Notes under the pieces: model-generated
Databases searched by the model: none
What the model saw: only the letters and a program-made list of their open reading frames with translations
What the model was told of the DNA's origin: nothing
Position numbers and translations under genes: made by a program
Source: Pyrobaculum sp.
Lineage (GTDB): Archaea > Thermoproteota > Thermoprotei > Thermoproteales > Thermoproteaceae
Direction: 5' to 3'
DNA length: 64,000 bases
Assembly (NCBI GenBank): GCA_046293555.1
Contig: JBKBOT010000004.1
Coordinates: 19,372-83,371 of the forward strand
Part shown: piece by piece, positions 6,376 to 36,245 of the stretch
How the letters are laid out: the number at the start of each line of letters is the position of its first letter
How positions within the stretch are numbered: the stretch's first letter is position 1

Positions 6376-6392
6376 GGTTTACTATGTTAACC
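6376..6392. promoter_or_regulatory. Palindromic operator candidate, nirS / cyt c divergent promoter
   Basis: GGTTTACTATGTTAACC, ends 33 nt before nirS ATG; matches sites at nosZ and norB. Confidence 0.65.
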
Positions 6393-6425
6393 ACAAAGAT
6401 TAAGTCACTGTGTGTAGAGAGCCAC

Positions 6426-8045
6426 ATGGGCGAGAAAGAGACCAGGAGAGATTTTCTAAAGGCGGCTGCTGCTGCGGGCATAGGCTTCGCAGTGGGGTCA
6501 TGGGCGCTGGCGTTATCTAGACAAAAGGTGGTGGTAGAGACTACTGCAGAAAAGGAGACGTTAGTAAGGCCAGAGGTGAGAGTAAAGCCAGAGGTCCACA
6601 TACAGCAAGCTGCGCCAACTGCGGCGGCGCCGCCCCATCCGGCTTTTGAAAAACGGGGGCTGGAGTTCCTAAACCCAGAGAATATACAAAAGACGTTAAG
6701 AGTTGTCGTGCCGGAGGACCAGCTTCCCGGCAAGCCAGTTGGCTATAACATAAACGACATAGACTGGATAGCTCTCCTCATCGAGAGTAGATACCACGAG
6801 CCGGGGGCCGAGATGGTGGGGTCCTATACCTTCCTCGACATGAAGGAGTTTAAGATCTTAAAGCGGGTGAAAAACGCCGGCGATCGCGTCCATGTGGTGC
6901 GGTTTGGCAGAGAGGAGTGGCCTGAACACAAGAGGCGGTTTGCGGTGGGGATGTCTAGAGACTGCTGGCTCTCTAAGATAGACCTATACTCAATGCAGGT
7001 GGTGAGACAGATAAAAATTGGCGTAGATTGTAGAAGCGCCATCTTTGACAAAGATGGGAAGTACGTAATAGCGGGCTCTAAAGACCCGGGCCACGCCGTG
7101 ATACTAGATGCAGACACCTTTAAGGTCTTAAAGGTAATACCGTTTCTAGGCGTCAGTAAGTACTTCCCCACGCCAATGATGGGGAGACAGGGGGCAATAC
7201 TGGCCTCAGACTTGGGCTACTGGCTTGTCAACGTGAAAGACGCAGAGATGGTGTTAGTAATTGACTACAGGCAGCCTGACTTCCCCATCGTCCACGTCTT
7301 TACTAGTTATGATACAAACAAGAAGGGCAGCTCGGTGAAAGTAAGAATTGGCGACAAGGAGTATGAGACAACAGGTATTGGCAAAAGCCCCCACGAGCTT
7401 AATAAGTTAGATAAGGAGGGTAGATATGTCGCAGTTACAGGACAGGAGGGCAATACCATATCTATAGTAGACATGAAGACTTTCGAAATTGTTAATACAG
7501 TATACTGTGGCAAAAAGCCGCATCCAGGCCCCGGCACGCTGGTACCTGGAAAATACTTCCTTACAAACGCCATAGCGGAGGGTTTAATCACAGTGATAAA
7601 CCTACAGACCATGGATGTAGAGAAATACATCAAGTATCCAAAAGAGTTCCCGCCAGAGACAGGCGGTGGCCTGTACTCCACCCCGCCCCTGCCTGACGGC
7701 AGAGTTCCCCACAACTTGGCGTGGTTTGACACCAGCTTCAATATAAACAAGGGCGTATTTGCAGTAGACATTACGTTAATGGACGTGGCCACTAGGCCCC
7801 CGGAGCCCGCCGTCTTTGCCCCCAACAAGCCCGGCAAGTGGGCTATGCATCCCGGACATACCCCAGACGGGAGATATGTGGTGTCTGCCCTCGAGAGGAC
7901 CGACATGGTGTACAAAGTGGATGCCGAAAGCGGCAAGATTGTCTCCACCATCGAGCTAAAGAAGGTGGAGCCAGTCCAGCTGGTGGAAGAGCCGAGCCCC
8001 ACCGGGATATTCCCGTTGTGGCGTATAAAGGCGCCGTGGTTTTAG
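6426..8045 (+). CDS. nirS: Cytochrome cd1-type nitrite reductase, d1 beta-propeller only, Tat-exported
   Basis: Tat motif TRRDFLK; RVHVVR (d1 axial His region), SPHELN and PHPGPG (distal His regions), C-terminal PTGIF; no CxxCH. Confidence 0.82.
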   Translation: MGEKETRRDFLKAAAAAGIGFAVGSWALALSRQKVVVETTAEKETLVRPEVRVKPEVHIQQAAPTAAAPPHPAFEKRGLEFLNPENIQKTLRVVVPEDQLPGKPVGYNINDIDWIALLIESRYHEPGAEMVGSYTFLDMKEFKILKRVKNAGDRVHVVRFGREEWPEHKRRFAVGMSRDCWLSKIDLYSMQVVRQIKIGVDCRSAIFDKDGKYVIAGSKDPGHAVILDADTFKVLKVIPFLGVSKYFPTPMMGRQGAILASDLGYWLVNVKDAEMVLVIDYRQPDFPIVHVFTSYDTNKKGSSVKVRIGDKEYETTGIGKSPHELNKLDKEGRYVAVTGQEGNTISIVDMKTFEIVNTVYCGKKPHPGPGTLVPGKYFLTNAIAEGLITVINLQTMDVEKYIKYPKEFPPETGGGLYSTPPLPDGRVPHNLAWFDTSFNINKGVFAVDITLMDVATRPPEPAVFAPNKPGKWAMHPGHTPDGRYVVSALERTDMVYKVDAESGKIVSTIELKKVEPVQLVEEPSPTGIFPLWRIKAPWF

Positions 8046-8602
8046 GCAGGGTATACATCGTCGGCGCCGGCCCCGGCGACCCGGAGTTATTAACGGTCAA
8101 GGCCCTTTTTCTCCTTCTAACAGCAGACGTGGTCTTCGCCGCCTCCCTCGTCCCCAGCTCAATTCTCAGCCTAGCTGACGGCAAAGTGGTGAAGTGCGGC
8201 CGCCTTACCTCTAGCCGACATGTAGGGCTGACAGCAAAAGTAATAGAGGAGGCCAAGTCTGGAAAGACGGTAGTGGTGTTAAAAAACGGGGATCCAGTCA
8301 TATTCGGCCGGGGGGTGGCCATGTGTAGAGAGATAGAGAAGGCCGGCGTGCCTTGTGAAATTGTGCCCGGAGTCTCCTCCTTCTCTGCAGCTGCGGCGAA
8401 GTACAAAATACCCATAACTGAGGGGGGCAGGCCTCTCCTCCTGACTACAGCCAGAAGTGGGGGGGAGCCAGACGTGGTGGTATTTATGCCTGAACAGAGG
8501 GCTGAGGGGCTTGTGGTGGAGGACCTATATGGAGAGGGCGAGAGGGCGTATTTTGGGGTGCCACAAAAGACGCCGGCGCTAGTCTTTAAACTAAGGCAGT
8601 AA
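8036..8602 (+). CDS. Uroporphyrin-III C-methyltransferase (SUMT, NirE-like)
   Basis: VYIVGAGPGDPELLTVKA, LKNGDPVIFGRG, VPGVSS; GTG at 8036 overlaps the nirS end. Confidence 0.88.
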   Translation: MVLGRVYIVGAGPGDPELLTVKALFLLLTADVVFAASLVPSSILSLADGKVVKCGRLTSSRHVGLTAKVIEEAKSGKTVVVLKNGDPVIFGRGVAMCREIEKAGVPCEIVPGVSSFSAAAAKYKIPITEGGRPLLLTTARSGGEPDVVVFMPEQRAEGLVVEDLYGEGERAYFGVPQKTPALVFKLRQ

Positions 8603-9041
8603 TTTTTTTCAACACATTTTTAAAGGTCTTATATACAGCTGTCTTAGATATCTGATATCTCTCCGCCAATGTGGCCAAGTTGCCTCCATTAGCCATAGAC
8701 TGCAACACCTCCCTCTGTCGAGGCGTGAGGAAAAGCTCCCGGCTGTCTAAAGTCTTTATTTCAACCACCTGGTCTTTACTCAAGATCTTTCTCACAGCTG
8801 CATTATCGCTCACAATGACTTTAATCCTTTGGTTTTCAAGTATAGGCCCGCGTAACACATAGCCGGCGGCAAGTAGGCGGTAGAAAACACACTCCTCACA
8901 TCGCGCCGCCATGACCTCCACGCCGCGGTGTGTATGTAGGAGGTAGAAAATCTTGTCGCCACGTATTTTAAAACCAACGATGGCCTTCACGTCGGGGGGA
9001 AGTTTGTCACAAGGACGTAAAATAACTTTTAAAAATTTCAT
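8586..9041 (-). CDS. Transcriptional regulator with C-terminal Bat-like HTH and CxxC
   Basis: LTPRQREVL...LAERYQISKTAVYKTFK; PCD and CEEC in the N-terminal domain. Confidence 0.75.
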   Translation of the reverse strand: MKFLKVILRPCDKLPPDVKAIVGFKIRGDKIFYLLHTHRGVEVMAARCEECVFYRLLAAGYVLRGPILENQRIKVIVSDNAAVRKILSKDQVVEIKTLDSRELFLTPRQREVLQSMANGGNLATLAERYQISKTAVYKTFKNVLKKITALV

Positions 9042-9210: not shown

Positions 9211-10053
9211 GTGTTGCCCTATTTAGTATTGCTAAAGCCTAGAGTAATTTGGCTTTTAATATTGGCGTCAGTGGCTGGGTATATATATGCAACTCCACAA
9301 ATAGATCCCATACTCTTGTTGTCTTTATTACTTGTAGCTTTTCTTTCTACAGGAGGATCTGCGGCCTTTAATCATTACTGGGAGAGAGATATTGACAGCG
9401 CCATGACTCGCACCGCCAAAAGGCCTCTACCCATGGGCCTTGTGGCGCCGAAAAACGCCTTGACCTACTCCCTAATGCTTTCAGCTGTTGGCGTGTTATG
9501 CGGCTTTCTATTATTGGGGCCTCTCCCGACATTTTTCGTGGCATTGGGGTGGGTCTTTTATTCTGTAGTATATACGATATTGCTAAAAAGGAGAAGTTGG
9601 CTAAATGTGTTGGGCGGCGGCTTTGCTGGAAACGCCACTTTTCTAGGTGGTTATGCCTTGGGTAAGGGGTATATAGACCTTACAGCCCTGTTGCTCTCTT
9701 TTGCGATATATCTCTGGATTCCTTCACACATATGGGCTCTTGCGTATAGATATAGACATGACTACAGAGCCGCCGGGGTGCCCATGTTGCCCACAGTGGT
9801 GAGTGAAGGCAATGCAATAAAGATAATCTCGACGTTAAATATCTTAAGCGCTTTTTACATCCTGTGGCTATATCTCACTCTCGCGGGGGCAGACCACCTC
9901 TTTTTGTTAGTGGCGGCAGGCGCCGCGGCGTCTATATATACAAGCATAAAAGCCCTCATTGAGAAGAGCGACGAGGCGATGTGGAAGATGTATAAAGCCT
10001 CTAGCCCCATCCTCATGTTGTTTCTCCTCGCCCTTATTTTCGCCAAGCTTTAA
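9211..10053 (+). CDS. ctaB: Protoheme IX farnesyltransferase (heme O synthase)
   Basis: [45 protein letters not shown]. Confidence 0.93.
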
Positions 10054-11018: not shown

Positions 11019-11028
11019 GTACCTGCAG

Positions 11029-11478
11029 TCACGTCAATAACGTCACGACTTTTCTTAACGCCTTTTTGAAGTGTTTGTAGACCGCCGATTTGGAGACGCC
11101 GTATTTATCTGCAACGTCAGACAGACTGTAGCCGCCGGCCACCTGTCTAAGTACTTCTCTCTGGCGGGGAGTTAGAGTGAGGTCGCTAAGCCGCAGGGCC
11201 TCTACTATACGGCCTCTATATGTCTCCACCACCTGTCTAACTGCCCTACTGTCTCTCACCACAATCACAACTTTTCTTCCCTCAAAAATGGGGCCTTTTG
11301 CCACATATCCCGTGGTGAGTAACCTATAGAGGGGACAATTCTCACATTTCGCGACGACGATCTTAACTCCAGCCGTGGTTTGCACTATGTGGTACATCTT
11401 GCCATGTCTAATCTTGACGCCAATTATGTCAAACGGAACGGCGTCGCAGTGATTTAATGTGAGCTTCAAAAATCTCAT
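11029..11478 (-). CDS. Bat-like HTH regulator with CxxC (paralog of 8586-9041)
   Basis: MRFLKLTLNHCD...CENCPLYRLL...LTPRQREVL...SKSAVYK. Confidence 0.75.
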   Translation of the reverse strand: MRFLKLTLNHCDAVPFDIIGVKIRHGKMYHIVQTTAGVKIVVAKCENCPLYRLLTTGYVAKGPIFEGRKVVIVVRDSRAVRQVVETYRGRIVEALRLSDLTLTPRQREVLRQVAGGYSLSDVADKYGVSKSAVYKHFKKALRKVVTLLT

Positions 11479-11504
11479 GATATTACTAATCTCTCTCTTT
11501 TTAA

Positions 11505-11927
11505 CTAGTGTATATGGATTTCGAGGGTGGTGGGCGGCGCCTCGAATTGTATCTTGGCGCCGTCGTCTAGACGTATGGCTACTCTTATGGTTCCCTCTAC
11601 GGCGCCATATATCATGAGGTGGTATGTGAGGTGTCTAAAAGACGCCGTGCTGAAGGGAGCCACACAGACCTTATCTACAGGCAGCATGGCCACCACAGTG
11701 CCGTTAACTACAGTTTTGTGTAACTCCGCCGTGGCTGTATGTGGTTTTTCCAGCTCGGCGCCTATGATACATCTGGTGAAAGGCGTTGGGTTTACAAAGG
11801 TGAAGTATACCATCCCCACGTCTGGCGCCGTCATGACGTAACTGGCGTCTTTCACATAGGGCCTGGCTAGGCCTATATAGGCGAGGGTAATTACGGCGAC
11901 TGTCAGCACTATGGCGAGAAGCCGCAT
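11505..11927 (-). CDS. Copper chaperone PCu(A)C
   Basis: Signal/TM; AELH-x10-M-x21-HLM motif; C-terminal HIH. Confidence 0.8.
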   Translation of the reverse strand: MRLLAIVLTVAVITLAYIGLARPYVKDASYVMTAPDVGMVYFTFVNPTPFTRCIIGAELEKPHTATAELHKTVVNGTVVAMLPVDKVCVAPFSTASFRHLTYHLMIYGAVEGTIRVAIRLDDGAKIQFEAPPTTLEIHIH

Positions 11928-11930
11928 GTC

Positions 11931-12281
11931 TTAATATGGCCTTAAAAATATTGCATATGCCATAGCCACCAACGCCACGAGGCCAATAAAGTGGTCTATA
12001 GGTATGTCTGTATGGGGGATGTGCCAGACGTAGCCCGTGTACATAGATATGGAGAGAGCCAGCTCTCTTGCCAGCAGTAGGAGAAACGCCACGAGGAGCC
12101 ACCTAAATCTGGGGGTTCTCACCCTCACATATCCAGAAATAGCCACGTAGAGCAAAACTGCCGCCACCACCACTGTGGCTGTATGTAACATGGCGTGTCC
12201 TGGCGACAGCCCCTCGTGTTTATGTCCCAAAGAGAGGAGGAGGACGGCTATGGGTATTAGGAAAAACAACAGGCTTCTCAT
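11931..12281 (-). CDS. Small His-rich membrane protein
   Basis: 3-4 TM segments with His residues in loops (HKHE, HAMLH, WHIPHTD, DH). Confidence 0.65.
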   Translation of the reverse strand: MRSLLFFLIPIAVLLLSLGHKHEGLSPGHAMLHTATVVVAAVLLYVAISGYVRVRTPRFRWLLVAFLLLLARELALSISMYTGYVWHIPHTDIPIDHFIGLVALVAMAYAIFLRPY

Positions 12282-13021
12282 AGGTCTATTTTTTTAGAGT
12301 TGTCGTATATGGCTAAAGCCAACGCGGCGAGCCACGCCGCGTATATGCCTGAAAACACCACAAAGATCCACTCTGGTCCCATATGTATGACGTATTCCCC
12401 CAGAGGCCCTAGAGTTAAGAGGTGGCGGTCTACAAGCGCCGTGGCTGTAAGCGCCACCAGCTTTATGGGGTTTGCCAGCTGTATGGCCAACAGGGCTTCA
12501 CTCCCCAGCGGCAGTATGAGGTTTATAAAAGCCACAACTATGTCGTATATTATGGCCAGCCCCGTCCACGCCACCACCGAGTAGAGAAAAGCCGACTCCC
12601 GGCTTTTAGAGATAAGGCCTATATATGTGCCAAGTAGCGACGCCACCGCCGAGACGGACAAGGTGAAAAAAACGGCGGGGGTCCCCCGCAGTAGGAAATA
12701 CGGCGTTATGGCCACAAGGGTGTACGCCAGCGCCAGCGCCAGGTTTGCCACAGCTCTACTCCAGAAATAACCCGCCCTCCCCCAGCTGGAGAGATAGGCC
12801 TCCACAAGGCCCTCTCTATCTCCCACCGTGGAGGCAGTGGAGGCCATCATGGCTATAAAGGAGGCCACCACCGTGAGGAAGTTTATAGAGGTTACCACAG
12901 CCGCAAAGCCGCCGCCTAGAGATGCCAAAGCCACAGAGACAGCCCACCCTAAGGCCAACATGGCGAGATATGGCGGAGTTAAGGCGTCGCGTTTAAGTGT
13001 AAATATAAGCAGTTTAGCCAT
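12278..13021 (-). CDS. NosY-like ABC permease
   Basis: 6 TM segments, DREGLVEAYLS, LANP; downstream of nosD/nosF-like genes. Confidence 0.75.
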   Translation of the reverse strand: MAKLLIFTLKRDALTPPYLAMLALGWAVSVALASLGGGFAAVVTSINFLTVVASFIAMMASTASTVGDREGLVEAYLSSWGRAGYFWSRAVANLALALAYTLVAITPYFLLRGTPAVFFTLSVSAVASLLGTYIGLISKSRESAFLYSVVAWTGLAIIYDIVVAFINLILPLGSEALLAIQLANPIKLVALTATALVDRHLLTLGPLGEYVIHMGPEWIFVVFSGIYAAWLAALALAIYDNSKKIDL

Positions 13022-13670
13022 AGCCCACCACATATCGCATCTCTCCCCACTTGACACATATCTCGTCCCCACAGGCCTCCAGATACGCCGCCTTGGCTTT
13101 CTCCCAGCTGGCCACAGAGGTGACTCTCCCCTCCTGTATATATATCAAGGTGGGTTTAAGTACCAGAAATGGCGCCGGGTCGTGTGTAGCCAGTATGAAG
13201 GGCCTCCCGGCTAGAGACCTAACTAGCTCTACCCTAAACCTAGTCTCTAGGTAGGAAAGCGGCTCGTCCAGAAGAGGTATTTTATCTAGAGAGGCCGCCA
13301 CCGTGAGTAAAACCCGCGCCGCCATGCCGGAAGAAAGCTCCGCCCCCCTCTTGGCGAGAAAGTCCTCTACTCCAAACCTGGGCCTAATGTCCCTCTGGAA
13401 GACCTCAGAGAGGTGTTGTAAATACTCCCCCACAGTTACTGTAGGCGGCAGGCGGGGGGCAGGCGGCAGGTAGTAAAACAGGCCGGGGCCTGCCGGCATG
13501 CCGTCAATCTCCACACGGCTCTTACAGCTATATACGCCGGAGAGGCAGCGGAGGACTGTGGACTTGCCGCTGCCGTTTGGCCCTAACAACAGGGCGGGGC
13601 CGCTCCACCTGGCGTCAAATCTCAGCGAGAAGCCTCTAAACCTCTTCTCTACCGCCGCGTAAATATCCAT
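13014..13670 (-). CDS. NosF-like ABC ATPase
   Basis: GPNGSGKST, LSSGM, LLDEP, ATHD. Confidence 0.8.
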   Translation of the reverse strand: MDIYAAVEKRFRGFSLRFDARWSGPALLLGPNGSGKSTVLRCLSGVYSCKSRVEIDGMPAGPGLFYYLPPAPRLPPTVTVGEYLQHLSEVFQRDIRPRFGVEDFLAKRGAELSSGMAARVLLTVAASLDKIPLLDEPLSYLETRFRVELVRSLAGRPFILATHDPAPFLVLKPTLIYIQEGRVTSVASWEKAKAAYLEACGDEICVKWGEMRYVVGYG

Positions 13671-14809
13671 AACGCCGCCGGCAGTAAGGCAAAGACGGCC
13701 AGCCAGCTGGGTTGACGTACGTCCGGCTGGGGGGTTGGGTCGGCCACGACGGGCCTCCCGGCTAGGGAGTCAATTAGGGCTTTGGCTGGAGATGCGGCCA
13801 GAAAGGCGAGGTCTCCCTCTGTGGCTGTCATGAGGTCTGAAAAGGCGCTGGAGTATACATAGGGCCTGTCTGACGGGTGGCCGCCCCAGAGGTTGTGTAT
13901 AAACGCCGCAGTGGCCGCCGCCTCCCCCACGCCGCGGTGTAATACAGCCACCACGTTGTCTCTAATGGTGTTGTTGGCAAAAAGGACGCCGGTGCCGTTT
14001 CTCCCCCATAGAGTTACCCCAAAGTAGTTCTCCACAATGTCGCAATTTTTAACTACAACACGTGTGCCGCCCCAGTAGAGGACAAAAACGCCGTGGATAT
14101 TCCCACGGGAGGTACAGCCGGCCACCTCTCCCTCTACCTCTGCCAGAAGTAGCCCGTAGCCCTCCGCCCAATTCCTGTTGTCTACCAACGTGGCGTTTTG
14201 TAACGTCGCCGCCGTGGTGTACATCAAGGCGGCTCCCACGTAGTTCTGGCGGGCGTAGAGACCCTCTATAGCCGCCCCGTGGCTAAACATCAGGTGGACG
14301 CCATATCTACAGTCCCAAGTCTCCACATTGCTGATTTTAACCCCCCTGGAGTACTCGACGTATATACAGTCGTGAAAATGTCTAAAAGAGGCCCACGCCG
14401 CCTCCACGTTGCTGGAGTTATATAGATACAGCCCCACGCCCCTCTTGTATATAGGGAGTCCCTCAAGCCCGACGGCGTTAATACCCCTAATGGCGACATT
14501 TGTGGAGTTAAAGACCAGCACCCCCGAGCTACACCAGAGCTCTAGCCTCTCGACGGTTATATTCCTGCCCACAATTAACATACAGCCGGCTGTGGGCTTT
14601 AGCCTATATGCGGTCATAACTGCCGGGAGCTCTACGGCCACCTCCCCGCCTTTAACCACGGCGTTTTTTAAAACCACGTCGCTGGCGTTTATCACAAGCC
14701 TAGAGGCTGTGATGTTTTCATAAACGCCTGGCTTGTCTATTATAACTACAGCCGCTAACGCCTTAACAGCTATTATACCAGCCAGGAGGAGAAGACCAAG
14801 CAGGGCCAT
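13649..14809 (-). CDS. NosD-like beta-helix protein
   Basis: RGVGLYLYNS, HDCIYVEYS, RYGVHLMFS, LMY; C-terminal TM. Confidence 0.82.
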   Translation of the reverse strand: MALLGLLLLAGIIAVKALAAVVIIDKPGVYENITASRLVINASDVVLKNAVVKGGEVAVELPAVMTAYRLKPTAGCMLIVGRNITVERLELWCSSGVLVFNSTNVAIRGINAVGLEGLPIYKRGVGLYLYNSSNVEAAWASFRHFHDCIYVEYSRGVKISNVETWDCRYGVHLMFSHGAAIEGLYARQNYVGAALMYTTAATLQNATLVDNRNWAEGYGLLLAEVEGEVAGCTSRGNIHGVFVLYWGGTRVVVKNCDIVENYFGVTLWGRNGTGVLFANNTIRDNVVAVLHRGVGEAAATAAFIHNLWGGHPSDRPYVYSSAFSDLMTATEGDLAFLAASPAKALIDSLAGRPVVADPTPQPDVRQPSWLAVFALLPAALWIFTRR

Positions 14810-15365
14810 AGTGGAAGTTATTTAAGACACATTTATAACTAACCACCTTCCTCACCTCTCCGCTAGGCTTCGGGGGGCTGTAGACATCGCCACCAATGGC
14901 TTTAACCCGCCAGGGGCTTGACGCCTCGCCTCTCTTGTACCTCTCCAGGTTTTGGGGTGCCACAGCCAATATCCCGGTGCCCATAGCGGTGAACTCCGTA
15001 GTGACCAAAAGGCTGGCCTCCCGCGCCTCTATCCATCTGCCCTCCACTCTATCTATCACACAGACTTGTAACACCTCCCCGCCCGAGTTCTCTACTTCTC
15101 TATGCCATGTGGCTAGACAGCCCACGTCGTCAAAAAAATACCACCGCTCTACTCCCCTCAACCTGACTTTCATCGCCGCGGCTGAGGGGGGGTAATCTAC
15201 CACCATCTTGCAGACTGGACACTCCTCCCGGCCGAAGACAAGCGGCGGCTCCTCCCCACAGTAAAGACCCCCCTCCCCGCCCCTCAGGCGGGACAATACG
15301 CCAAATAACGCCGCCGTCCCCACGAGGCCTAGGAGGAGGGCGAAAAAAGTGCGGCGGGTTGGCAT
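14763..15365 (-). CDS. NosL-like copper chaperone (Tat signal)
   Basis: TRRTFF; CPVCKM, FDDVGCL, TAMG. Confidence 0.8.
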   Translation of the reverse strand: MPTRRTFFALLLGLVGTAALFGVLSRLRGGEGGLYCGEEPPLVFGREECPVCKMVVDYPPSAAAMKVRLRGVERWYFFDDVGCLATWHREVENSGGEVLQVCVIDRVEGRWIEAREASLLVTTEFTAMGTGILAVAPQNLERYKRGEASSPWRVKAIGGDVYSPPKPSGEVRKVVSYKCVLNNFHYGPAWSSPPGWYNSC

Positions 15366-16054
15366 TAGTGGGTGTGCGTCGCCGCGCCTCTACACCAGTT
15401 GGGTCTAGGCATCCCGGTCTTCTGCATCACCTCTCTATATAGCTGAAGCATTTGGTCAAAAGTGTAGATAGTGGCGTTGTGTTTCTTGGCGTCGTCGGGG
15501 TTAGAGAAGGCAAACACACAATCGCCCATGGGGGTCTTCCTGTCTTGTAAGATCACGTAATACGCCCTCTTGGCGTCTACATATAGCTCGACGCCACGTC
15601 TGTGAGCTTCATAATCTGGCACCAACACCTGCTTGACCCCACCCAATACGTTCTTTATGTCATCCACAGTGGCGTTTAGCCTGGCGAGAAAACGCCATTT
15701 CTCTATAGGTATTAACTGCATCCTGAATATACAGCCGATGTCGTCAGTTCTGGCAGCTACCCCCTTGTCGAATATAACTCGCGCCGAGACTCCCATCTTT
15801 ACAGCCTCAGCCACATCCATGCCGCAGAATATACAACGGCGTTCAAAAGTGCCGTTTTTGACAAGTTGTTCCAACAGTGGAACAGGCTTGGCGACAGTTT
15901 GAGTCACCGTAGCGGTCTCGGTTGTTGTCACTGTTTGAGTCACCGTAGTGGCGACAGTTTGAGTCACCACCTTCGCCGGGGCTGTCGCTGTGCCAGCCAG
16001 ATAGGCGGCGACCCCCACCACAATCGCCACCAGAAGTGGAACTACTATTTTCAT
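15365..16054 (-). CDS. NosL-like copper chaperone with Thr-rich stalk
   Basis: CIFCGM, DDIGC, TPMG; (T/V)VTQTV repeats; C-terminal HTH tripeptide (His-Thr-His). Confidence 0.75.
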   Translation of the reverse strand: MKIVVPLLVAIVVGVAAYLAGTATAPAKVVTQTVATTVTQTVTTTETATVTQTVAKPVPLLEQLVKNGTFERRCIFCGMDVAEAVKMGVSARVIFDKGVAARTDDIGCIFRMQLIPIEKWRFLARLNATVDDIKNVLGGVKQVLVPDYEAHRRGVELYVDAKRAYYVILQDRKTPMGDCVFAFSNPDDAKKHNATIYTFDQMLQLYREVMQKTGMPRPNWCRGAATHTH

Positions 16055-16817: not shown

Positions 16818-16822
16818 AACAG

Positions 16823-26576: not shown

Positions 26577-26578
26577 CT

Positions 26579-28764: not shown

Positions 28765-28786
28765 AATACCCCTCCCTTTTTTTCCC

Positions 28787-29404
28787 GTGAGGTTTTTCCC
28801 CATCCTCATCCTGGCCGTAGCAATTCCCTTCATAGTGGCTATAGTTATGCAGCTTGGGGGCACCACCGCCGAGGAGCACTCAGGTCTTTTTGAGAGAGTT
28901 GTCCCCATTTGCTACCCCCCGGGCCGGGAGCCAGAGGCGTATGACTTCCAGCTGGTGGACCAGTTCGGCAGGTCGGTGAGGCTCTCCCAGCTGTGGGGTG
29001 GGGCGGTGTTGATTACTTTTACCTATAGCTACTGTCCCGACGTCTGTCCGTTAATGCACCTAGTGCTCAACAGGTCGCTCCCCCACATAAGGCCGTATAT
29101 AGCCCATGTGTTAGACGTCTCTCTCGACCCCGAGAGAGACACTGTGGAGAGGTTATATCACTACGCTATGGGCAATCGTTACAACTGGACCTTTCTTACG
29201 GGCGACTTGAGGGCTCTGGAGGCCGTCTGGAGGGCATATGGCGTGACCCGCTCTGTGACATATGTGGGCGGCCAGCCGTATATAGTACACGACGTGGTTT
29301 GGGCCGTGGTAAAAGACGGCAGGCTGTTAGGCATGGTGAGGGGGCTCCCGTCGCCCGAAACGCTTTCGCAATATCTGGCGAGAATTGTGGAGAGGAGATG
29401 TTAG
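28787..29404 (+). CDS. SCO1/SenC copper chaperone
   Basis: FTYSYCPDVCP, SLDPERDT, downstream His. Confidence 0.9.
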   Translation: MRFFPILILAVAIPFIVAIVMQLGGTTAEEHSGLFERVVPICYPPGREPEAYDFQLVDQFGRSVRLSQLWGGAVLITFTYSYCPDVCPLMHLVLNRSLPHIRPYIAHVLDVSLDPERDTVERLYHYAMGNRYNWTFLTGDLRALEAVWRAYGVTRSVTYVGGQPYIVHDVVWAVVKDGRLLGMVRGLPSPETLSQYLARIVERRC

Positions 29405-29763
29405 ACCTAATACTTAGGGCCTTGTTGCAATGTCCAGGCCCCTACTTCCGCCAGCTTTCAAAAGAGCTGTCCATACCGGTGGGCACTCTTGACTACTACC
29501 TCACAAAGCTGACTAGAGAAAGGCTGGCATATAGGCTGGGGTCTCGGCCCCGGTATTACCACATCAAGACAGCCCTCGAGGAGGCCCTGGCGATATATAT
29601 ACTACGGGAGGGTCCGAGGGCACTGGCGGAATTTCCAGAGGCTAAATGTGGCAAGTCTCTATGCCCAACAGTCAGAAACCTCATGGCTGCTGCGTTAGAT
29701 AAATATCCATGTCTAAGGAGAGACGTTGTGGAAAACTACATAACCCTCATGATGTTGATATAG
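29398..29763 (+). CDS. Winged-helix regulator with Cys residues
   Basis: CPGPYFRQLSKELSIPVGTLDYYLTKL; CGKSLC; GAGGAG before ATG 29398. Confidence 0.7.
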   Translation: MLDLILRALLQCPGPYFRQLSKELSIPVGTLDYYLTKLTRERLAYRLGSRPRYYHIKTALEEALAIYILREGPRALAEFPEAKCGKSLCPTVRNLMAAALDKYPCLRRDVVENYITLMMLI

Positions 29764-29863: not shown

Positions 29864-29880
29864 GGTTAATGTGATTAACC
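29864..29880. promoter_or_regulatory. Palindromic operator candidate upstream of nosZ
   Basis: GGTTAATGTGATTAACC, ends 34 nt before the ATG, followed by TAAAGGCTTATAT. Confidence 0.7.
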
Positions 29881-29914
29881 TAAAGGCTTATATGTGTAGT
29901 GGTAGGCATGGATC

Positions 29915-32041
29915 ATGAGCCGGGTTAGAGTTTATGGATCTGCGGCGTCGGGTGGGGGCAAGCCCACGAGGGTCAAGATCTCGAGGCGTGAGGTGATTGC
30001 AGGTGTCGGCGGGTTGGCGGTAGGCCTTGTGGGTGGCTATGCGTTAAGCACTCTCTTGCAGAAAGGCGCCGTGGCGCCGGCGCCGCCTGGCGTGTGGGAA
30101 GAGGTACAGAAGATAGCAACTGCGCGGAAGCTCTCTCCTGACGACGTCACAGCTGCCGTCAAGACCTATCTGCCGGGCACTATGCATGACGAGTTTTATC
30201 TATTCTCGAGCGGCGGCCACTCCGGCCAGGTGGGGGTTATGGGGATACCGTCGATGAAGCTATATCGCATTATTGCCGTATTTACTCCAGAGCCTTGGCA
30301 GGGGTGGGGATATCACGACAAGAAGACTATGGAGACTTTATTTAGCGAAAGAGCCACTGCCGGCAGGCCGCTGGCGTGGGGTGACACACACCACCCGGAG
30401 TTTGATAGACAAAATGCAGAGTATGTAGGCAGGTGGCTTTTCATAGGCGACAAAGTCCACGGCAGGGCTGCCGCCATTTCTCTATTGGACTTTGAGCCTA
30501 AAGACATTGTGAAGATACCAAACGTCCAGACTATCCACGGCGGCGCCTTCACTACGCCGAACACCGAATATGTGCTCTACGCCACGCAGTACCCAGCGCC
30601 ATGGGAGCCCGGGAGGGGGTATAAGCCCGGCGTGACTAAAGTGCCGTGGTTACAGGTTGTAAAAGAGGAGAAATACTTCTTTGAATATATGAGGGGGGCT
30701 CTCACCTTCCTTGCCTTTGATAGAGGCACCGGGCGGTTTGACCTCACGAGGAGCTTCCAGATCGAGGTTCCGCCCTACGTCCAGGACTTGGCGACAATTA
30801 GCTGGGGTCCCGGCGACGGCTTGGCGTTTGTAAATTCTTTCGGCACTGAGGGCATGTTCGGCGAGGTGCCTTACGAGGCCAAGTTGTCTAAAAACGACTT
30901 TGACCTCCTCCACATCGTGCAGTGGAAGAAGGCGGAGGAGCTTTGTCTAAAGCAGGGACGTTGTAAGGAGATAAACGGCATTAAGGTGTTATCTCTAGAA
31001 GACGCGGTGAGGGAGGGAGTGTTGTTTTTCGCTAGAGAGCCCAAGAGCCCACACGGCGTGGACACCTCGCCGGGAGGTAATTTCATATCGGTCGGCGGGA
31101 AGCTTGCCCCCTATGCCACAATCTACGGCGCTGAGAGAGTGAAGAGGGCAATTGCAGATGGGAAGTTTGAGGGGAGGGATAGATATGGCGTGCCTATACT
31201 AGATTTCGGCTCTATAGTGGCCGGGCAGGTGGAGGCGTGTCTAGGGCCTCTCCACACGGAGTTCGACGGGAGGGGCAATGCGTATATAAGCTGTTTTGTG
31301 GAAAACGTGGTTACTAAATTCTCTCTCGGCCCTCCAGAGTATAGAGGCGATAAGCCGTTTTCTGTATTAGATAAGGTGGCTATTCACTACAATGTTGGCC
31401 ATATCTGTGTGCCTGAGTCCAACTCGCCGAATCCCGCCGGCAAGTATCTAGTGGCTATGAACAAGTGGTCAATTGACCGCTTCATGTCCGCAGGCCCGTT
31501 ACTGCCGCAAAACTTCCAGCTGATTGACATATCTGGCGAGAAGATGAAATTGTTGCTAGATGTCCCCATTGGCTGGGGCGAGCCTCATTACGCCAAGGCG
31601 ATTAGGTCTGAGAAGCTCAAGCCTCCAGCTGTATATCCAGTTGGCGCCAATCCGCATGTGATGAAAGGTGGCGAGTTCCAGATAGACCCCAACGCCGTGA
31701 CTGAGGTGGGGAAGGAGAGGGTTGAGCGCCGCCAGCTGCCAGACGGGCGTTGGGTCACAGAGGTGTGGGGGACTGTCATCAGATCTACGATAAGGCCCAT
31801 CATAATTGTGGCAAAGAGGGGAGACTTGGTGAGACTACATTTAACCAACGTGGAGAAGAGTATAGACGCCACACATGGCCTCGCCATTGCGGAATACAAT
31901 GTGGCCGCATCTCTAGAGCCTGGGGAATATGCGTTAATAGAGTTTGTAGCTGACATACCTGGCGTGTTTGCGTTTTACTGCTACGAGTTCTGCTCGCCGC
32001 TTCACCTAGAAATGGTCGGATGGCTGGTGGTGGAGGAATAA
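29915..32041 (+). CDS. nosZ: Nitrous oxide reductase (clade II-type motifs, Tat signal)
   Basis: SRREVI; CuZ His motifs DTHH, IHG, SPHG, PLHT, VGH, EPH; CuA THG...CYEFCSPLHLEM. Confidence 0.95.
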   Translation: MSRVRVYGSAASGGGKPTRVKISRREVIAGVGGLAVGLVGGYALSTLLQKGAVAPAPPGVWEEVQKIATARKLSPDDVTAAVKTYLPGTMHDEFYLFSSGGHSGQVGVMGIPSMKLYRIIAVFTPEPWQGWGYHDKKTMETLFSERATAGRPLAWGDTHHPEFDRQNAEYVGRWLFIGDKVHGRAAAISLLDFEPKDIVKIPNVQTIHGGAFTTPNTEYVLYATQYPAPWEPGRGYKPGVTKVPWLQVVKEEKYFFEYMRGALTFLAFDRGTGRFDLTRSFQIEVPPYVQDLATISWGPGDGLAFVNSFGTEGMFGEVPYEAKLSKNDFDLLHIVQWKKAEELCLKQGRCKEINGIKVLSLEDAVREGVLFFAREPKSPHGVDTSPGGNFISVGGKLAPYATIYGAERVKRAIADGKFEGRDRYGVPILDFGSIVAGQVEACLGPLHTEFDGRGNAYISCFVENVVTKFSLGPPEYRGDKPFSVLDKVAIHYNVGHICVPESNSPNPAGKYLVAMNKWSIDRFMSAGPLLPQNFQLIDISGEKMKLLLDVPIGWGEPHYAKAIRSEKLKPPAVYPVGANPHVMKGGEFQIDPNAVTEVGKERVERRQLPDGRWVTEVWGTVIRSTIRPIIIVAKRGDLVRLHLTNVEKSIDATHGLAIAEYNVAASLEPGEYALIEFVADIPGVFAFYCYEFCSPLHLEMVGWLVVEE

Positions 32042-32484
32042 GTCGGCGGGTTGTAGTCATGTCTCTTGTCGCCATTGCCTCCGGGGCGGCAGTTTTTTTC
32101 CTCCCTCCAAGGAGGGAGAATTCCCCCGAAATTAGGCTGGGGGTAGATAAATGCGCCGTCTGTCAAATGGTTATTGTAGACAAGAGGTTTGCCGCCGTCT
32201 ATCGCCATGAGGGGAGGTGGGAGAAATTTGACGACGTTATATGTCTCCTCCGTTATCTCAAAGAAATTGGGCGGCTTGACGATATTAAAAACGCCTATGT
32301 ATATGACTACCTCTCTGGAAGGTTGGTAAAGGCGTCGGAGGCCTATTTTGTCATAACAAAGAAGATACCTACCCCCATGGGCTCTGGAATTGTGGCGTTT
32401 ATAGATAGAGAACAAGCCGCGGCATATTCGGAAGACGGGAAGATCTACACTATAGAAGAGCTAGCGGAGAAAGTCTTGCCATGA
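32020..32484 (+). CDS. nosL: NosL copper chaperone
   Basis: CAVCQM, FDDVICL, TPMGSG. Confidence 0.85.
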   Translation: MAGGGGISRRVVVMSLVAIASGAAVFFLPPRRENSPEIRLGVDKCAVCQMVIVDKRFAAVYRHEGRWEKFDDVICLLRYLKEIGRLDDIKNAYVYDYLSGRLVKASEAYFVITKKIPTPMGSGIVAFIDREQAAAYSEDGKIYTIEELAEKVLP

Positions 32485-33035
32485 GGCTGGCGGTAAGGCC
32501 CATAGCCCTTGTAGGCCTCGTGTTGATTTTAATTAGCTACGCCTTCCCCTTCTGGTCTACTTACTTGTCTTCGCCTATATTTGGCTACACCCGGCAGGTA
32601 TATATCAAGGTGATGTTGGCTGGATATGTGGATTACACCCCTCCTGACGCCCTCCTGCAGTTAAATATAGCCCATCACTACGTCGGCTTGCCGCCTCTAG
32701 AGCCCGAAAAAATGATTGAGCTGAAGCTCATGCCCCTTCTGCCGGCTGGGCTTTTTGTGGTCTACCTTCTGTATCTATTTGGCAAACTAAGGCCCAGGTG
32801 GCTTCTCTTGGTTACATACCTGGCGCTGATAGGCGGCGTGGCTTACTTCCAGTGGTGGCTATATAACCTCGGCCACAGCATAACGCCGGGGGCGCCTGTG
32901 AAGATCGAGCCGTTTACGCCAATGGTTGTGGGCGCGTACCAAATCGCCAATTTCACGGCATTAAACCTCTTAGACGTGGGCTTCTGGCTTCTGGCCATAG
33001 CCCCGGTGTTTGCATATCTGGGACGTAAAAAGTGA
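32481..33035 (+). CDS. nosB: NosB-like 4-TM protein
   Basis: LNIAHHYVGL, WLYNLGH...AP.KIEPFTP, G...IANF, typical of the clade II nosB gene. Confidence 0.75.
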   Translation: MRLAVRPIALVGLVLILISYAFPFWSTYLSSPIFGYTRQVYIKVMLAGYVDYTPPDALLQLNIAHHYVGLPPLEPEKMIELKLMPLLPAGLFVVYLLYLFGKLRPRWLLLVTYLALIGGVAYFQWWLYNLGHSITPGAPVKIEPFTPMVVGAYQIANFTALNLLDVGFWLLAIAPVFAYLGRKK

Positions 33036-34333
33036 TTATTTTTTTACTTTTTACAGTCTTTATCTCAGCTGCCGTCATGGTGTCGCCGCCTGGGGGCGGC
33101 GCCTATCAACTACCCACGTTTAATTTATCTCAAGTCCCCCCCGGCTCTAAGGTGTATCTCAGCGGCGTTTTTGCCGGGAGTTTTGTTGTAGATAGGCCGG
33201 TGGAGATTGTGGGGCGTGGCGCCGTGTTGTACGGAAATGGCACAGTGTTGAGAATTGTGGCCAGTGACGTTAGAGTAGCTAACTTAACTATCGCCCGCTG
33301 TGGGAGAACCGGGCTGGATTCGGGAATTTGGGTGGAGAATGCCAGAAATGTGACTATAGTCGGAATATCTATAGAGGAGTGTCTCTACCCAGTTATGGTG
33401 TATAACTCCACCGGGGTTAAAATCGTTGGCTCAAATATAGCAAGCTTTAGGGAAGTACCTAGGGTGACCTACGGCGGGGGGCCGGTGGCTATGCACGAAC
33501 TGACGCAATACTTCAGGGGGCATGGGGTATATGTCTGGTTTTCACGTGGCGTCGTAGTGGAGGGTAGCCGTTTTGCCCACGTGTTAGATGGGGTCTACTG
33601 CGACCACGCCTATGGGTTGGAGGTAGTGCAAAATGTCTTCACGTCGGGTAGTAGATATGCAGTCCACCTGATGTATTGCGAGGGGGTTAACATAGTTGGC
33701 AACTCTGTGCGGGATTATGTGGTGGGCTTTATCCCCATGTATAGCAGCTCTGTGGTTATTAACAAAAATGTTGTAGTCGACATAAGGAGAGTCGGCGGCG
33801 CGGCTGTGGTGATTTTTGAAAGCGACGACGTGTATATATGCAACAATATAATTACCAGAAATTACCTAGGCGTTGAGCACTTCCGTTCCCCCCTCAGGCC
33901 GGGGGGTCGGGTGGTCATTGTAAATAACACTTTTCTCTATAATAACATAGCCATAAAGCTAGACTCCTACTCTACCCCAGCCATATATGGAAATTTATTT
34001 ATAGAAAACATCCGGGATGTGTTGCCGTTGTTTAACAATGGCGCGTTACTTTACAACGAGAGTTTAAAAATAGGTAACTTCTGGGGGGTTTCACGCGGCG
34101 TGTATGTAGCACGGCAGAGGGTATTTGACAAACTACTGGCCGACAATCCCCACCTCGAGCTCTTTGTATTAACGCCAGCTTTTACACTTTTGGAACAACT
34201 ATTTGGCGTGACGTATCCCCGGGGGGGAGAGCTAGTGGATAAATACCCCATTTCCCGTCAAGTAGACATATCGGCGTTGTATATAGTTGTCGCCATTCTG
34301 GCGGTGGTGGCATATGTCTGGAGTAGAGATTAA
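33032..34333 (+). CDS. nosD: NosD
   Basis: RGHGVYVW, DGVY, RYAVHLMY, GNFW. Confidence 0.88.
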   Translation: MIIFLLFTVFISAAVMVSPPGGGAYQLPTFNLSQVPPGSKVYLSGVFAGSFVVDRPVEIVGRGAVLYGNGTVLRIVASDVRVANLTIARCGRTGLDSGIWVENARNVTIVGISIEECLYPVMVYNSTGVKIVGSNIASFREVPRVTYGGGPVAMHELTQYFRGHGVYVWFSRGVVVEGSRFAHVLDGVYCDHAYGLEVVQNVFTSGSRYAVHLMYCEGVNIVGNSVRDYVVGFIPMYSSSVVINKNVVVDIRRVGGAAVVIFESDDVYICNNIITRNYLGVEHFRSPLRPGGRVVIVNNTFLYNNIAIKLDSYSTPAIYGNLFIENIRDVLPLFNNGALLYNESLKIGNFWGVSRGVYVARQRVFDKLLADNPHLELFVLTPAFTLLEQLFGVTYPRGGELVDKYPISRQVDISALYIVVAILAVVAYVWSRD

Positions 34334-34931
34334 AGTCGCAGACCTGACTTATGCCGTAGGCGGCCATGAGATCTTGAAGAATGTAAACATGGAGATAGAC
34401 AGGGGGGCATTTGTGGTGGTGACAGGGCCAAACGGCTCTGGCAAGACCACCTTCCTTAGGTGTGTTGTAGGCGTGTTGAAATGTGAGGGAATCGTGGAGG
34501 TTATGGGGAGAGACCCGCGGAGAGATGTAGAGGTGAGAAGGGGGGTGGGGTATGTTCCACAACTGCTCCCCTTCCCCCCACTCGCCGTGAGGGAGGTGGT
34601 GTGGCTACACTACAAGATCTACGGGATTTCAAACGGCGAGGTGTTAAAAGAGTGGGGGCTGGCGGCTCTGCTCGACAGAAAGGTGGCTAGGCTTTCTGGC
34701 GGCGAGAGGCAAAGGCTGGCGTGGGCCCTCGCCCTATCTCACAAGCCGAGGGTGTTAATTCTCGACGAGCCTTTTAACAACCTAGATGCAGAGGGGAAAA
34801 GGTTGGCTTTAGAGAAGTTAAGAGAGTTGAGAGAAAAGGTGACAGTAGTTATGGCCATACATGAGGCGTATGAGGTGGAGAAGTTGGCAGACGCCGTGGT
34901 GAGATTTGAGGGGGGGATGGCGAGGATATGA
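34314..34931 (+). CDS. nosF: NosF ABC ATPase
   Basis: GPNGSGKTT, LSGGERQR, ILDEP. Confidence 0.85.
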   Translation: MSGVEIKVADLTYAVGGHEILKNVNMEIDRGAFVVVTGPNGSGKTTFLRCVVGVLKCEGIVEVMGRDPRRDVEVRRGVGYVPQLLPFPPLAVREVVWLHYKIYGISNGEVLKEWGLAALLDRKVARLSGGERQRLAWALALSHKPRVLILDEPFNNLDAEGKRLALEKLRELREKVTVVMAIHEAYEVEKLADAVVRFEGGMARI

Positions 34932-35710
34932 TAGTCTGTCTCTTCACGGTGAGGCAGTGGCTTCTCCACAGGTGGGTTTTTTCCTACGCCGCCTCTCTTG
35001 TTTTAATACTGCTTTTCATATTCTACACGGCCTATTTTGGCCTCGCCTGGATACAACCAGAGTTTTACGGCAGGGTGGCCGTGGCTGTAGTCAACGCCGC
35101 TCTTTTTCTAGTCTCTCTCTCCGCTCTGTTGATTCCGCTGTTTGTATATCAAGACGATAGAGAGACTGGGCTTTACGAGTGGTTTATCTCCAGGCCTGTG
35201 AGGCGATTTCATCTATGCCGCTGGCTGGGCGTGGCGGCTTCCCTCTCGGCGGCCACCATTGCCTCCTTCCTCGTCGCCATGTCTCTTAACTACCTGATGT
35301 TCCGCCTTTTTGTCTCGCAGATGTTAATAATCGCCGCGGTTTTTATGGCCTTAATCTTCTCGCTGTCTGCAGTTAGCTATCTCATCTCCATGGCTCTTCC
35401 CGACAAGGCCTCTGCCTTAGGCGCCGGGTTTTTCCTCTGGCTTTACCTCAATATTATCCACACCATTGTGGCTATGGTTTTTGCCCTGGGGTCCCCTCCA
35501 GATGTCGCCTTTGTGATATATGTCCTCAGCCCCGTGGAGTCCGCCAGATTTCTCAGCTTCTATGTGGTAGACCCCACTCTCTCTTTTTTAAACCCAGTGA
35601 CGGCGATAGACCTCACGCTCTCGCTACAAGGCCTCCTCTTTTACCTACCTGTAGCCGTATTGGCAACACCTATTGTGATCGCCCTGGCGGTGTTTCGAAC
35701 TCTTCCTTAA
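34928..35710 (+). CDS. nosY: NosY permease
   Basis: 6 TM segments, DRETGLYEWFISRP, LSPVESAR. Confidence 0.8.
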   Translation: MIVCLFTVRQWLLHRWVFSYAASLVLILLFIFYTAYFGLAWIQPEFYGRVAVAVVNAALFLVSLSALLIPLFVYQDDRETGLYEWFISRPVRRFHLCRWLGVAASLSAATIASFLVAMSLNYLMFRLFVSQMLIIAAVFMALIFSLSAVSYLISMALPDKASALGAGFFLWLYLNIIHTIVAMVFALGSPPDVAFVIYVLSPVESARFLSFYVVDPTLSFLNPVTAIDLTLSLQGLLFYLPVAVLATPIVIALAVFRTLP

Positions 35711-36203
35711 ATATAGCCCACAGCGCCCTGGCTAGGTGTCTATATGGACTCTTGTGTTTTTCTAGACATTCCACAAATTTCTTAAACCACGGCGCAATAA
35801 AACGTCGGTAGAATTCTCTCCTAAGTTCCTCCCTGCCGCCTGTGGTGGCGCCGAGAAATTCCAACATGGCTGGGAGGTAGTCTGGTAGCTCCCGCCGTAT
35901 GTCCATAGTGAAGCCCAGGGCCTTGTAGTAAGTCAATATTTGGTACATATAGAGGCCTCTCTCCCTGCTGTCTTCCCCCAGGGCGTAGTAGCCGGCATAT
36001 GGGGGACATCTGGGCGTGAGTTCAAACATCTCCACCCTGTGGCTTTCCAGATCTACACCCTCTGCCTCCTCGAGGAAGGCCTTAAGTTCCTCAAGGCCTA
36101 GCTCTTCTGCCAGCGTGGAGATCTGTTCTCTAGCTTGTAGAAATGCCGTGGGGCTGTCCACAGCCCTGGCGGCTATTATGTACAAAACGCCTACCAAATC
36201 CAC
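35670..36203 (-). CDS. narJ: Nitrate reductase maturation chaperone (NarJ/TorD family)
   Basis: CPPY...GEDSRERG, ELPDYLPAMLEF, SPY. Confidence 0.85.
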   Translation of the reverse strand: MDLVGVLYIIAARAVDSPTAFLQAREQISTLAEELGLEELKAFLEEAEGVDLESHRVEMFELTPRCPPYAGYYALGEDSRERGLYMYQILTYYKALGFTMDIRRELPDYLPAMLEFLGATTGGREELRREFYRRFIAPWFKKFVECLEKHKSPYRHLARALWAIFKEEFETPPGRSQ

Positions 36204-36228
36204 AGATGTAGAAAAGAGCTATAGATAA

Positions 36229-36245
36229 AGTTAATGTGGTTAACC
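36229..36245. promoter_or_regulatory. Palindromic operator candidate, norB / narJ divergent promoter
   Basis: AGTTAATGTGGTTAACC, ends 38 nt before the norB ATG. Confidence 0.7.

Follow-up and report, generated by a model that had tools for sequence, protein, structure and literature searches.

The promoters of the genes for nitrite reductase (nirS), nitric oxide (NO) reductase (norB) and nitrous oxide (N2O) reductase (nosZ) in Pyrobaculum share a 17-bp inverted repeat with the consensus tGGTTAAC-N3-RTTAACCa, which is very probably a genuine operator of a denitrification regulon. The repeat was analyzed in a stretch of 64,000 nucleotides of a Pyrobaculum sp. genome (GenBank assembly GCA_046293555.1, contig JBKBOT010000004.1, positions 19,372 to 83,371 of the forward strand; hereafter, the window, to whose first nucleotide all positions refer) and in 18 genomes of the genus, labeled G000 to G017, of which G000 is the window's own. 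An earlier note, made from the letters of the window, had proposed that one shared operator joins the NO-producing, NO-removing and N2O-removing enzymes, and this reading is supported as essentially right on strong comparative evidence: the palindrome is rare elsewhere and conserved at all 21 orthologous promoters found in the genus. Taken as a whole, the best explanation, which we regard as probable, is that Pyrobaculum has a transcription factor reserved for denitrification and that the palindrome is its operator.

In the window, the operators lie at 6376..6392 (GGTTTACTATGTTAACC, upstream of nirS), 29864..29880 (GGTTAATGTGATTAACC, a perfect GGTTAA-N5-TTAACC upstream of nosZ) and 36229..36245 (AGTTAATGTGGTTAACC, upstream of norB), exactly where the earlier note had placed them, and they end 33, 34, and 38 nt, respectively, before the ATG codons of the three genes (6426, 29915, and 36284), again as it had reported. 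On the plus strand, each operator is followed by the TATA-like heptamer that the note had pointed out: GATTAAG (6398..6404), preceded by an A-rich stretch (6393..6397) resembling the transcription factor B recognition element (BRE), CTTATAT (29887..29893), and ATTTAAC (36252..36258), in line with a conserved AA/TTAT block described below. The genes downstream are assigned through Pfam: nirS (6426..8045, plus strand) encodes a cytochrome cd1 nitrite reductase (Cytochrom_D1, 4.3e-29); nosZ (29915-32041) opens a plus-strand operon (29915..35710) with nosL, an unidentified open reading frame (ORF), nosD, an ATP-binding cassette (ABC) ATPase, and a membrane protein ORF; and norB (36284..38458, plus strand) encodes an NO reductase made of one 724-residue subunit, whose N-terminal domain has a cytochrome c-like fold (COX1 and NorB_cytochrome_c-like). 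The half-sites, GGTTAA, differ from those of the FNR/DNR box, TTGAT-N4-ATCAA, as the note had also remarked, and its divergent neighbors are likewise present, with a cytochrome c gene at the nirS site and narJ (35670-36203, minus strand) at the norB site.

Several lines of evidence argue for an operator function of this element. Among the 18 genomes, orthologs of norB, nirS, and nosZ were found in eight, nine, and four, respectively, and every one of the 21 upstream regions carries the motif, with no mismatch to its ten core bases in 10 cases, one in nine, and two in the remaining two. In the 20 promoters for which spacing was determined (that of a broken nirS gene in G007 being left out), the motif ends 33–38 nt (16 promoters) or, for the four nosZ genes, 33–34 nt before the conserved ATG. 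In a motif-anchored alignment of 18 promoters, from which three near-duplicates were dropped (norB of G002 and nirS of G010 and G007), the half-sites contain 1.41 bits of information per position, against 0.52 in the 5-nt spacer, 0.22 in the 30 nt upstream, and 0.36 in the 34 nt downstream, and their pairwise identity over 153 pairs is 0.85, compared with 0.32 in the flanks. The earlier note had suggested phylogenetic footprinting as a check, and its outcome is hence that sequence and position have both been kept in flanks that have diverged to 32% identity. Counting from the first base of the motif, which ends at position 17, conservation is otherwise confined to AA at +20/21 and TTAT at +25–28, and the half-site nearer the promoter (RTTAACC) is better conserved than the distal one (GGTTWA).

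The occurrence of the motif beyond these promoters was assessed by several counts. In the window, GTTWA-N5-TWAAC has three matches, whereas 100 dinucleotide shuffles average 0.22 and none of them reaches three; under the looser definition GGTTAA-N5-TTAACC with up to two mismatches there are four matches against a mean of 2.6, a number reached by 29 of the 100 shuffles and hence not significant. The strict form GTTAA-N5-TTAAC occurs three times in the 1.75-Mb, 145-contig assembly of G000, upstream of nosZ, upstream of norB, and inside an ORF on contig C24. A weight matrix built from 15 non-redundant sites of the other genomes, with none from G000, ranks the nosZ (21.9 bits), norB (21.7 bits), and nirS (17.1 bits) operators as the top three distinct sites among 3,500,334 scored positions of G000, the next one scoring 15.2 bits, and the genome-wide scan that had been proposed for this motif thus places the three sites of the window first. 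Perfect copies of GGTTAA-N5-TTAACC number 10 in the nine genomes bearing nirS and none in the nine without it. Eight of these copies precede nirS, nosZ, narG (in G015), or a heme o synthase gene (in G003), and the other two lie within long open frames, without promoter geometry. Of 20 additional one-mismatch sites fetched from the relatives, 17 score at least 12 bits and a single one of these (G003:959599) shows promoter geometry; among the perfect or high-scoring extra sites listed in the relatives, positions fall over long open frames.

A 36-column, sequence-only profile encompassing the motif and the BRE/TATA block was also run over the 18 genomes, scoring at most 150 first-look candidates per genome, and returned 30 matches at E <= 0.01, corresponding to 24 distinct palindromes. 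Of these, 20 belong to nirS/cytochrome c, norB, or nosZ, three are found at other genes in genomes capable of denitrification, and one is in G011, and in seven genomes devoid of the pathway the profile finds no match even at E <= 1. Since the profile was trained on the 21 sites, their recovery is uninformative, and it is the absence of others that carries information. Within the window, the profile assigns 26.0 bits to the nosZ site, 22.3 to the nirS site, and 21.0 to the norB site, with no more than 5.9 bits anywhere else, in agreement with the earlier observation that the narG and oxidase promoters of the window lack the motif. Matrix, profile and window scans hence all speak against the motif being frequent at unrelated promoters, which the note had named as the finding that would count against it. 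For genomes without nosZ, a site at the gene of an alternative N2O reductase (a multicopper oxidase) was considered, but in a profile search made irrespective of where the oxidase genes lie, no further site at E <= 0.01 was found in G001, G002, and G007.

The same data bear on the notion that the palindrome is not regulatory at all, being instead a leftover of promoter duplication, the remnant of a mobile element, a restriction-type site, or a hairpin. The GTTAAC hexamer contained in the motif is by itself common, with 340 copies in the genome, and in G015 one palindrome directly follows the stop codon of norB, a place in which a hairpin might terminate transcription. Against this, the half-sites retain their identity across species and in front of three unrelated genes while their flanks do not, the distance to the ATG is fixed, and the motif is absent from genomes without the pathway; moreover, because the palindrome lies upstream of the TATA box, it should not be transcribed. 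Chance, a mobile remnant and a hairpin were rejected on the conservation of the half-sites, the divergence of the flanks, the fixed distance, and the pathway-restricted occurrence, and a non-regulatory origin as a whole appears very improbable.

Some observations nevertheless weigh against reading the palindrome as a denitrification operator. The matrix score of the nirS site (17.1 bits) is within the reach of random sequence, given that three 0.6-Mb second-order Markov simulations yielded maxima of 16.8, 14.8, and 17.2 bits, and it is by itself no outlier; the nosZ and norB scores do stand out. The bare 17-mer with one mismatch occurs 0–9 times per genome, compared with 0–8 times for a reversed control, and specificity resides only in the combination of motif and promoter geometry. 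Finally, the accessory members of the regulon vary between genomes: the motif precedes narG in only one of eight genomes (G015), and an operon of membrane proteins bears the site in only one of the eight loci scanned (G003).

Two sites in genomes that lack nirS and norB look like scars of a lost pathway. The palindrome of G011 (L080:1501-1532) agrees with the one before nirS in G012 at 16 of 17 bases and is followed by the same TATA-like block, and an ATA stands there where the ATG would be expected, with no long ORF behind it. In G017, a one-mismatch site (L038:1501-1517) follows a gene pair for SCO1 and a winged-helix-like protein that also precedes nosZ in the window, and is itself followed by gene fragments, one similar to the 3′ end of narH and one to a heme b subunit gene (narI-like).

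The regulon defined by the operator is wider than the three genes proposed in the earlier note, whose claim stands for nirS, norB, and nosZ and needs extension for the remainder. The nirS operator is common to a divergent cytochrome c-ccm operon (2146..6341, minus strand), in which a cytochrome c gene (5748-6341) is followed by cytochrome c maturation genes, including a CcmC-like gene (4359-5291) and an ABC ATPase (3416-3994), all assigned through Pfam. In the window, the site begins 34 nt past the cytochrome c ATG (6341), with a TATA-like CTAAAAA at 6362..6368 on the reverse strand, and an intact cytochrome c ORF begins 33–35 nt off the other edge of the nirS palindrome in eight of the nine genomes bearing nirS. 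The operator stands midway between the two start codons, which are separated by about 85 bp, and has a TATA-like block on each side. In G007, the same cytochrome c ATG is present but the long frame begins elsewhere, and a frameshift is hence likely. The nirS gene of G007 contains an in-frame TGA and aligns only from residue 145 (L017, L026), and its nir locus may be decaying. An equivalent role of the norB site for narJ was rejected: the spacing is 25–30 nt (25 nt in the window), there is no TATA-like block, and the site scores 9 bits with the profile in reverse orientation.

Further targets are seen in single genomes. In G015, the stretch from norB to narG contains a perfect palindrome (L002:3002-3018, contig C35), with 32 nt from its end to the ATG of narG, while the seven other narG promoters score at most -0.7 bits. 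In G003, a perfect operator stands 34 nt from the GTG codon of a heme o synthase gene, the ortholog of which in the window (9211..10053, plus strand; NCBIfam TIGR01473, 234 bits against a cut-off of 210) has no operator, and a further, good operator lies 34 nt from the ATG of an operon for two proteins with several membrane passes each (190 and 454 residues; L060:1600-3584) for which no Pfam family was found. This membrane protein family is present in eight of the 18 genomes, all of them present or former denitrifiers, and adjoins norB in four; it was not found in G000. The nosZ promoters of G003 (L024:8740-8785) and G015 (L019) carry a second inverted repeat, CTAGAAC ... GTTCTAG, distal to the operator, which is absent in the window.

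In the window, narG, narH, and the heme b subunit gene (38535..44721, plus strand) lie 3′ of norB behind a promoter region of their own that is free of the operator. This promoter contains its own long inverted repeat (38445-38515), with perfect arms ATCGGGAAAA and TTTTCCCGAT separated by 21 nt, which ends just before a TTTTAAT box located about 20 nt 5′ of the narG start codon. In G007 and G002, narG is preceded by a comparable repeat (ATATCGAGAA / TTCTCGATAT, 24 nt apart), and, judged by eye, a weaker form is present in G010, G003, and G004. These repeats may represent a separate, nitrate-specific operator.

The position of the palindrome relative to the core promoter gives an indication of its mode of action. 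The earlier note had placed the motif directly 5′ of a BRE/TATA-like block, and the conserved AA and TTAT positions, which the motif does not overlap, bear this out; as AA and TTAT(C), they presumably constitute the BRE and TATA box of these promoters, in an arrangement that has the hallmarks of archaeal activator-type architecture. In the archaeal regulators SurR, TrmBL1, Ptr2, and TFB-RF1, sites located upstream of the BRE/TATA typically activate, and sites that overlap it or lie downstream repress. The operator is placed with respect to the BRE/TATA like the sites of Ptr2, TFB-RF1, SurR, and TrmBL1 in their activating position, and it is on the basis of this position rule that the factor, which belongs to a different protein family, would act by activation, a mode that we consider fairly likely. 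The TATA box is centered about 24 nt 5′ of the ATG, a spacing compatible with leaderless mRNAs. Ten transcripts of P. aerophilum are reported to have no 5′ untranslated region (PMC2151090), and we infer a leaderless start at the operator promoters as well.

The same operator and regulon would be compatible with a repressor that blocks TFB/TBP under oxygen and is released on a signal, in the manner of bacterial NsrR, a repressor released by NO. Only 2 nt separate the operator from the BRE-like AA, a distance short enough to allow steric exclusion, and a bound dimer could equally block TFB, which counts against activation. Conversely, the site overlaps neither the TATA box nor the start in the 20 measured promoters, the TATA boxes of the operator promoters are weak (TTATC, CTTTTC) in comparison with the TTTAAAAAT found before the genes of the candidate regulator introduced below, as suits dependence on an activator, and the placement of one site symmetrically between two promoters is typical of activators. 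Repression, the main rival, is regarded as improbable, and activation as the preferred mode.

The factor that reads the palindrome may well be, on balance, a Cys-rich LuxR-type protein of about 150 residues, of which the window encodes two copies. P0001 (8586..9041, minus strand, 151 residues) combines an N-terminal domain containing three conserved Cys with a C-terminal helix-turn-helix (HTH) domain of the LuxR/GerE type according to Pfam, and P0002 (11029..11478, minus strand, 149 residues) is its in-paralog. Their last 50 residues match Pfam GerE with 27.7 and 32.5 bits against a cut-off of 23.5, and P0002 also matches Pfam HTH_10 (5.5e-07, 29.7 bits against a cut-off of 23.1). Neither a receiver nor an autoinducer-binding domain was found in them with Pfam and NCBIfam, the response-regulator models of the latter reaching 19–22 bits against cut-offs of 242–300. 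Full-length relatives of P0001/P0002 are present in 10 of the 18 genomes, namely all nine with nirS plus G017, and in all seven contiguous assemblies a regulator gene lies at most about 3.1 kb from an operator. The phylogenetic tree groups P0001, P0002, and the G017 copy together (support 80/86), with a longer branch for P0002, which suggests that P0001 and P0002 are recent duplicates.

P0002 is the last gene of a second nos-like accessory operon (11029-16054, minus strand), which comprises genes for two NosL-like proteins, a NosD-like protein, an ABC ATPase, unidentified ORFs, and a copper chaperone of the PCuAC type; the same nos-like accessory block adjoins the regulator in G017. Shorter paralogs of about 130 residues, with a CxxC-type Cys pair and an HTH, are encoded in G000 (G000:C28:20388-20783) and also in G001, G003, G004, and G015, often adjoining the full-length regulator in back-to-back orientation or located close to nosZ.

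The regulator family is small, a search of 1.84 billion proteins giving 31 cluster representatives at E <= 1e-10. A word-index search for homologs of the regulator returned the query itself only, and a search for related loci with an alignment of close regulators yielded four, all in the genus or in the Thermoproteales. In 11 aligned sequences, Cys11, Cys48, Cys51, and Asp17 are invariant and His33 nearly so; in 27 wider relatives, Cys11 and Cys51 remain invariant, His33 is almost always kept, and several sequences deviate at Cys48. The AlphaFold model of P0001 has a mean predicted local distance difference test (pLDDT) score of 86.3. Its residues 104-151 superpose on HTH domains of the NarL/DesR and sigma region 4 types with Z values of 7.0–9.3, the best match being the archaeal transcription factor 8hno_A [Z 9.3, root-mean-square deviation (rmsd) 0.8 over 48 residues], with DesR (Z 8.3, rmsd 1.2, 48 residues) and NarL (Z 7.0, rmsd 3.8, 51 residues) below it. 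The N-terminal β-rich domain of about 100 residues has no match in the PDB at E <= 0.001 with Foldseek. VIA-align rows fall nearly all on residues 103–151, a lone N-terminal row (1p9q_C; Z 7.0, 63 residues, rmsd 3.0) being unconvincing, and Atlas matches to the domain are below 0.8 or have a template modeling (TM) value of at most 0.42. Prediction of a homodimer scores 0.78 against 0.00 for the best of three controls, with at least 94% of contacts agreeing between runs and a partner pLDDT of at least 85; of 30 proteins solved as pairs of one chain, 20 attain the mark adopted for dimers, compared with one of 23 solved as single chains. Since dimers of the same HTH family are in the PDB, this result may partly reflect memory.

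The operator could also be read by another protein, either the winged-helix-like protein of 121 residues encoded just 5′ of the nosZ operator (29398..29763, plus strand) or an unlinked factor, with the LuxR-type proteins regulating something else, such as copper or heme cofactor supply. The HTH of the 121-residue protein was judged from its sequence only, and no Pfam or NCBIfam family was found for it. Its gene has a phyletic pattern similar to that of the LuxR-type genes, occurring in nine of the 18 genomes, eight of them with the present or past pathway, and its position is directly next to the nosZ site in G000 and next to the relic site in G017; in addition, P0002 resides in the copper-chaperone-like operon. 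Elsewhere, however, the winged-helix-like gene is far from the sites (more than 1 Mb in G001 and about 20 kb in G003), and it was not found in G010 and G012, both incomplete assemblies, being present in G011, whereas the LuxR-type gene stays close to a site throughout the contiguous assemblies and its product is predicted to dimerize. The earlier note had named four local HTH proteins for binding tests; among the local HTH proteins, linkage to the sites is much stronger for the two LuxR/GerE-type paralogs than for the winged-helix-like gene in front of nosZ. A different reader is thus rather unlikely, and the LuxR-type protein is retained as the leading candidate.

A number of considerations besides that shared phyletic pattern speak against the LuxR-type candidate or against the role assigned to its N-terminal domain. 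The regulator was assigned from linkage and co-occurrence only, and the 70 nt before ten regulator genes contain no palindrome and have strong TATA-like boxes instead. P0001 has a Tyr at the near-invariant His33 position, and a metal site is a guess from the conserved Cys and His, because the N-terminal domain matched no known sensor fold. No match to Rrf2 was found among the window proteins with Pfam and NCBIfam, and the three invariant Cys plus Asp amount at most to an analogy with NsrR-type sensors. A sensory role of such a Cys/His metal site, as opposed to a structural one, is put forward as doubtful.

Under the preferred mechanism, a homodimer bound to the palindrome would contact the upstream face of the TFB/TBP complex and recruit or stabilize it on the weak TATA boxes, jointly switching on nirS, the divergent cytochrome c-ccm operon, norB, and the nosZ operon. 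The single symmetric nirS site would thereby serve two promoters firing in opposite directions, and nitrate reductase would remain mostly outside the circuit. Cys11, Cys48, Cys51, Asp17, and His33 might hold a metal or iron-sulfur (Fe-S) center sensing NO, nitrite-derived stress, or oxygen. As a more far-reaching and quite tentative proposal, proteins joining such a Cys/His domain to a LuxR-type HTH could constitute a new, Thermoproteales-restricted class of metal or Fe-S gas or redox sensors, whose dimers, seated on one palindrome between two BRE/TATA elements, would activate two divergent leaderless promoters and tie NO production and removal, N2O removal, and cytochrome c maturation together in a hyperthermophilic crenarchaeon.

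Regulatory parallels to this arrangement exist in Bacteria and in haloarchaea. In bacterial denitrifiers, DNR, NnrR, and FixK, of the FNR/CRP family, co-induce nir, nor, and nos genes through one dimer bound to a palindrome just upstream of the core promoter. The Pyrobaculum system differs from the FNR/CRP systems in its box and in relying on archaeal basal machinery (TBP/TFB), and no CRP/FNR-type domain was found among the 71 ORFs of the window scanned with Pfam. Proteins with HTH domains of the LuxR/GerE/NarL type bind inverted repeats as dimers, and P0001 and P0002 resemble them in a C-terminal HTH that scores above the GerE cut-off; unlike NarL/FixJ or quorum-sensing LuxR proteins, they bear at the N-terminus a β-rich, conserved-Cys domain without named relative. 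Two reports on haloarchaea (PMC10062603; PMC5746218) describe a motif common to the nirK, nor, and nosZ promoters of Haloferax, located 66–79 nt before the ATG, with nar set apart; it reads CGAA-N4-TTCG in Haloferax volcanii, where NarO is the proposed regulator, and CGAAYATDKTYG in H. mediterranei, and its importance is indicated there by mutagenesis. Both systems join nir, nor, and nos promoters through an archaeal palindrome or semi-palindrome and leave nar apart, and they differ in phylum, in motif sequence, and in spacing, the motif of the window lying 33–38 nt rather than 66–79 nt before the ATG. NarO reportedly combines an N-terminal Cys motif with an HTH. For Pyrobaculum itself, the abstract of Cozen et al. 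2009 (J Bacteriol 191:782), a transcriptome study, reportedly predicts a NO-responsive regulator of denitrification in P. aerophilum. That regulator may be the present candidate protein, and its motif perhaps the present one; in the literature searched, no description of a denitrification motif or regulator was found for Pyrobaculum or for other hyperthermophilic crenarchaea, passages citing Cozen et al. 2009 take no motif from it, and nothing contradicted the earlier note, which knew of no such operator in Thermoproteales. The possible overlap with Cozen et al. 2009 may limit novelty.

Other features of the window were noted in the course of the analysis. An ORF 3′ of nirS (7838..8602, plus strand) is assigned as a uroporphyrinogen-III C-methyltransferase through Pfam TP_methylase, the domain starting at residue 71 and NCBIfam matches remaining below their cut-offs, and it probably serves the heme d1 branch. 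Cytochrome oxidase subunit I extends over two overlapping minus-strand ORFs (17005-19708), of which 18164-19708 covers profile positions 1–338 and 17005-18261 covers positions 344–435, fused to a COX3 domain; the division is due to a frameshift, an assembly error, or a natural split.

The regulation of denitrification has been well worked out in Bacteria and has begun to be so in haloarchaea, and hyperthermophilic crenarchaea now gain a candidate operator and a candidate regulator. The operator supplies a defined cis element with a fixed promoter geometry and a limited set of target promoters, one of them symmetric and bidirectional, and the regulator a single strong candidate protein from an uncharacterized family, while the putative relic sites of G011 and G017 provide markers of recent pathway loss. 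It thereby becomes testable how an archaeon living at high temperature avoids the build-up of NO and N2O, what form a gas or redox sensor takes in crenarchaea, and how an archaeal activator makes contact with TFB/TBP.

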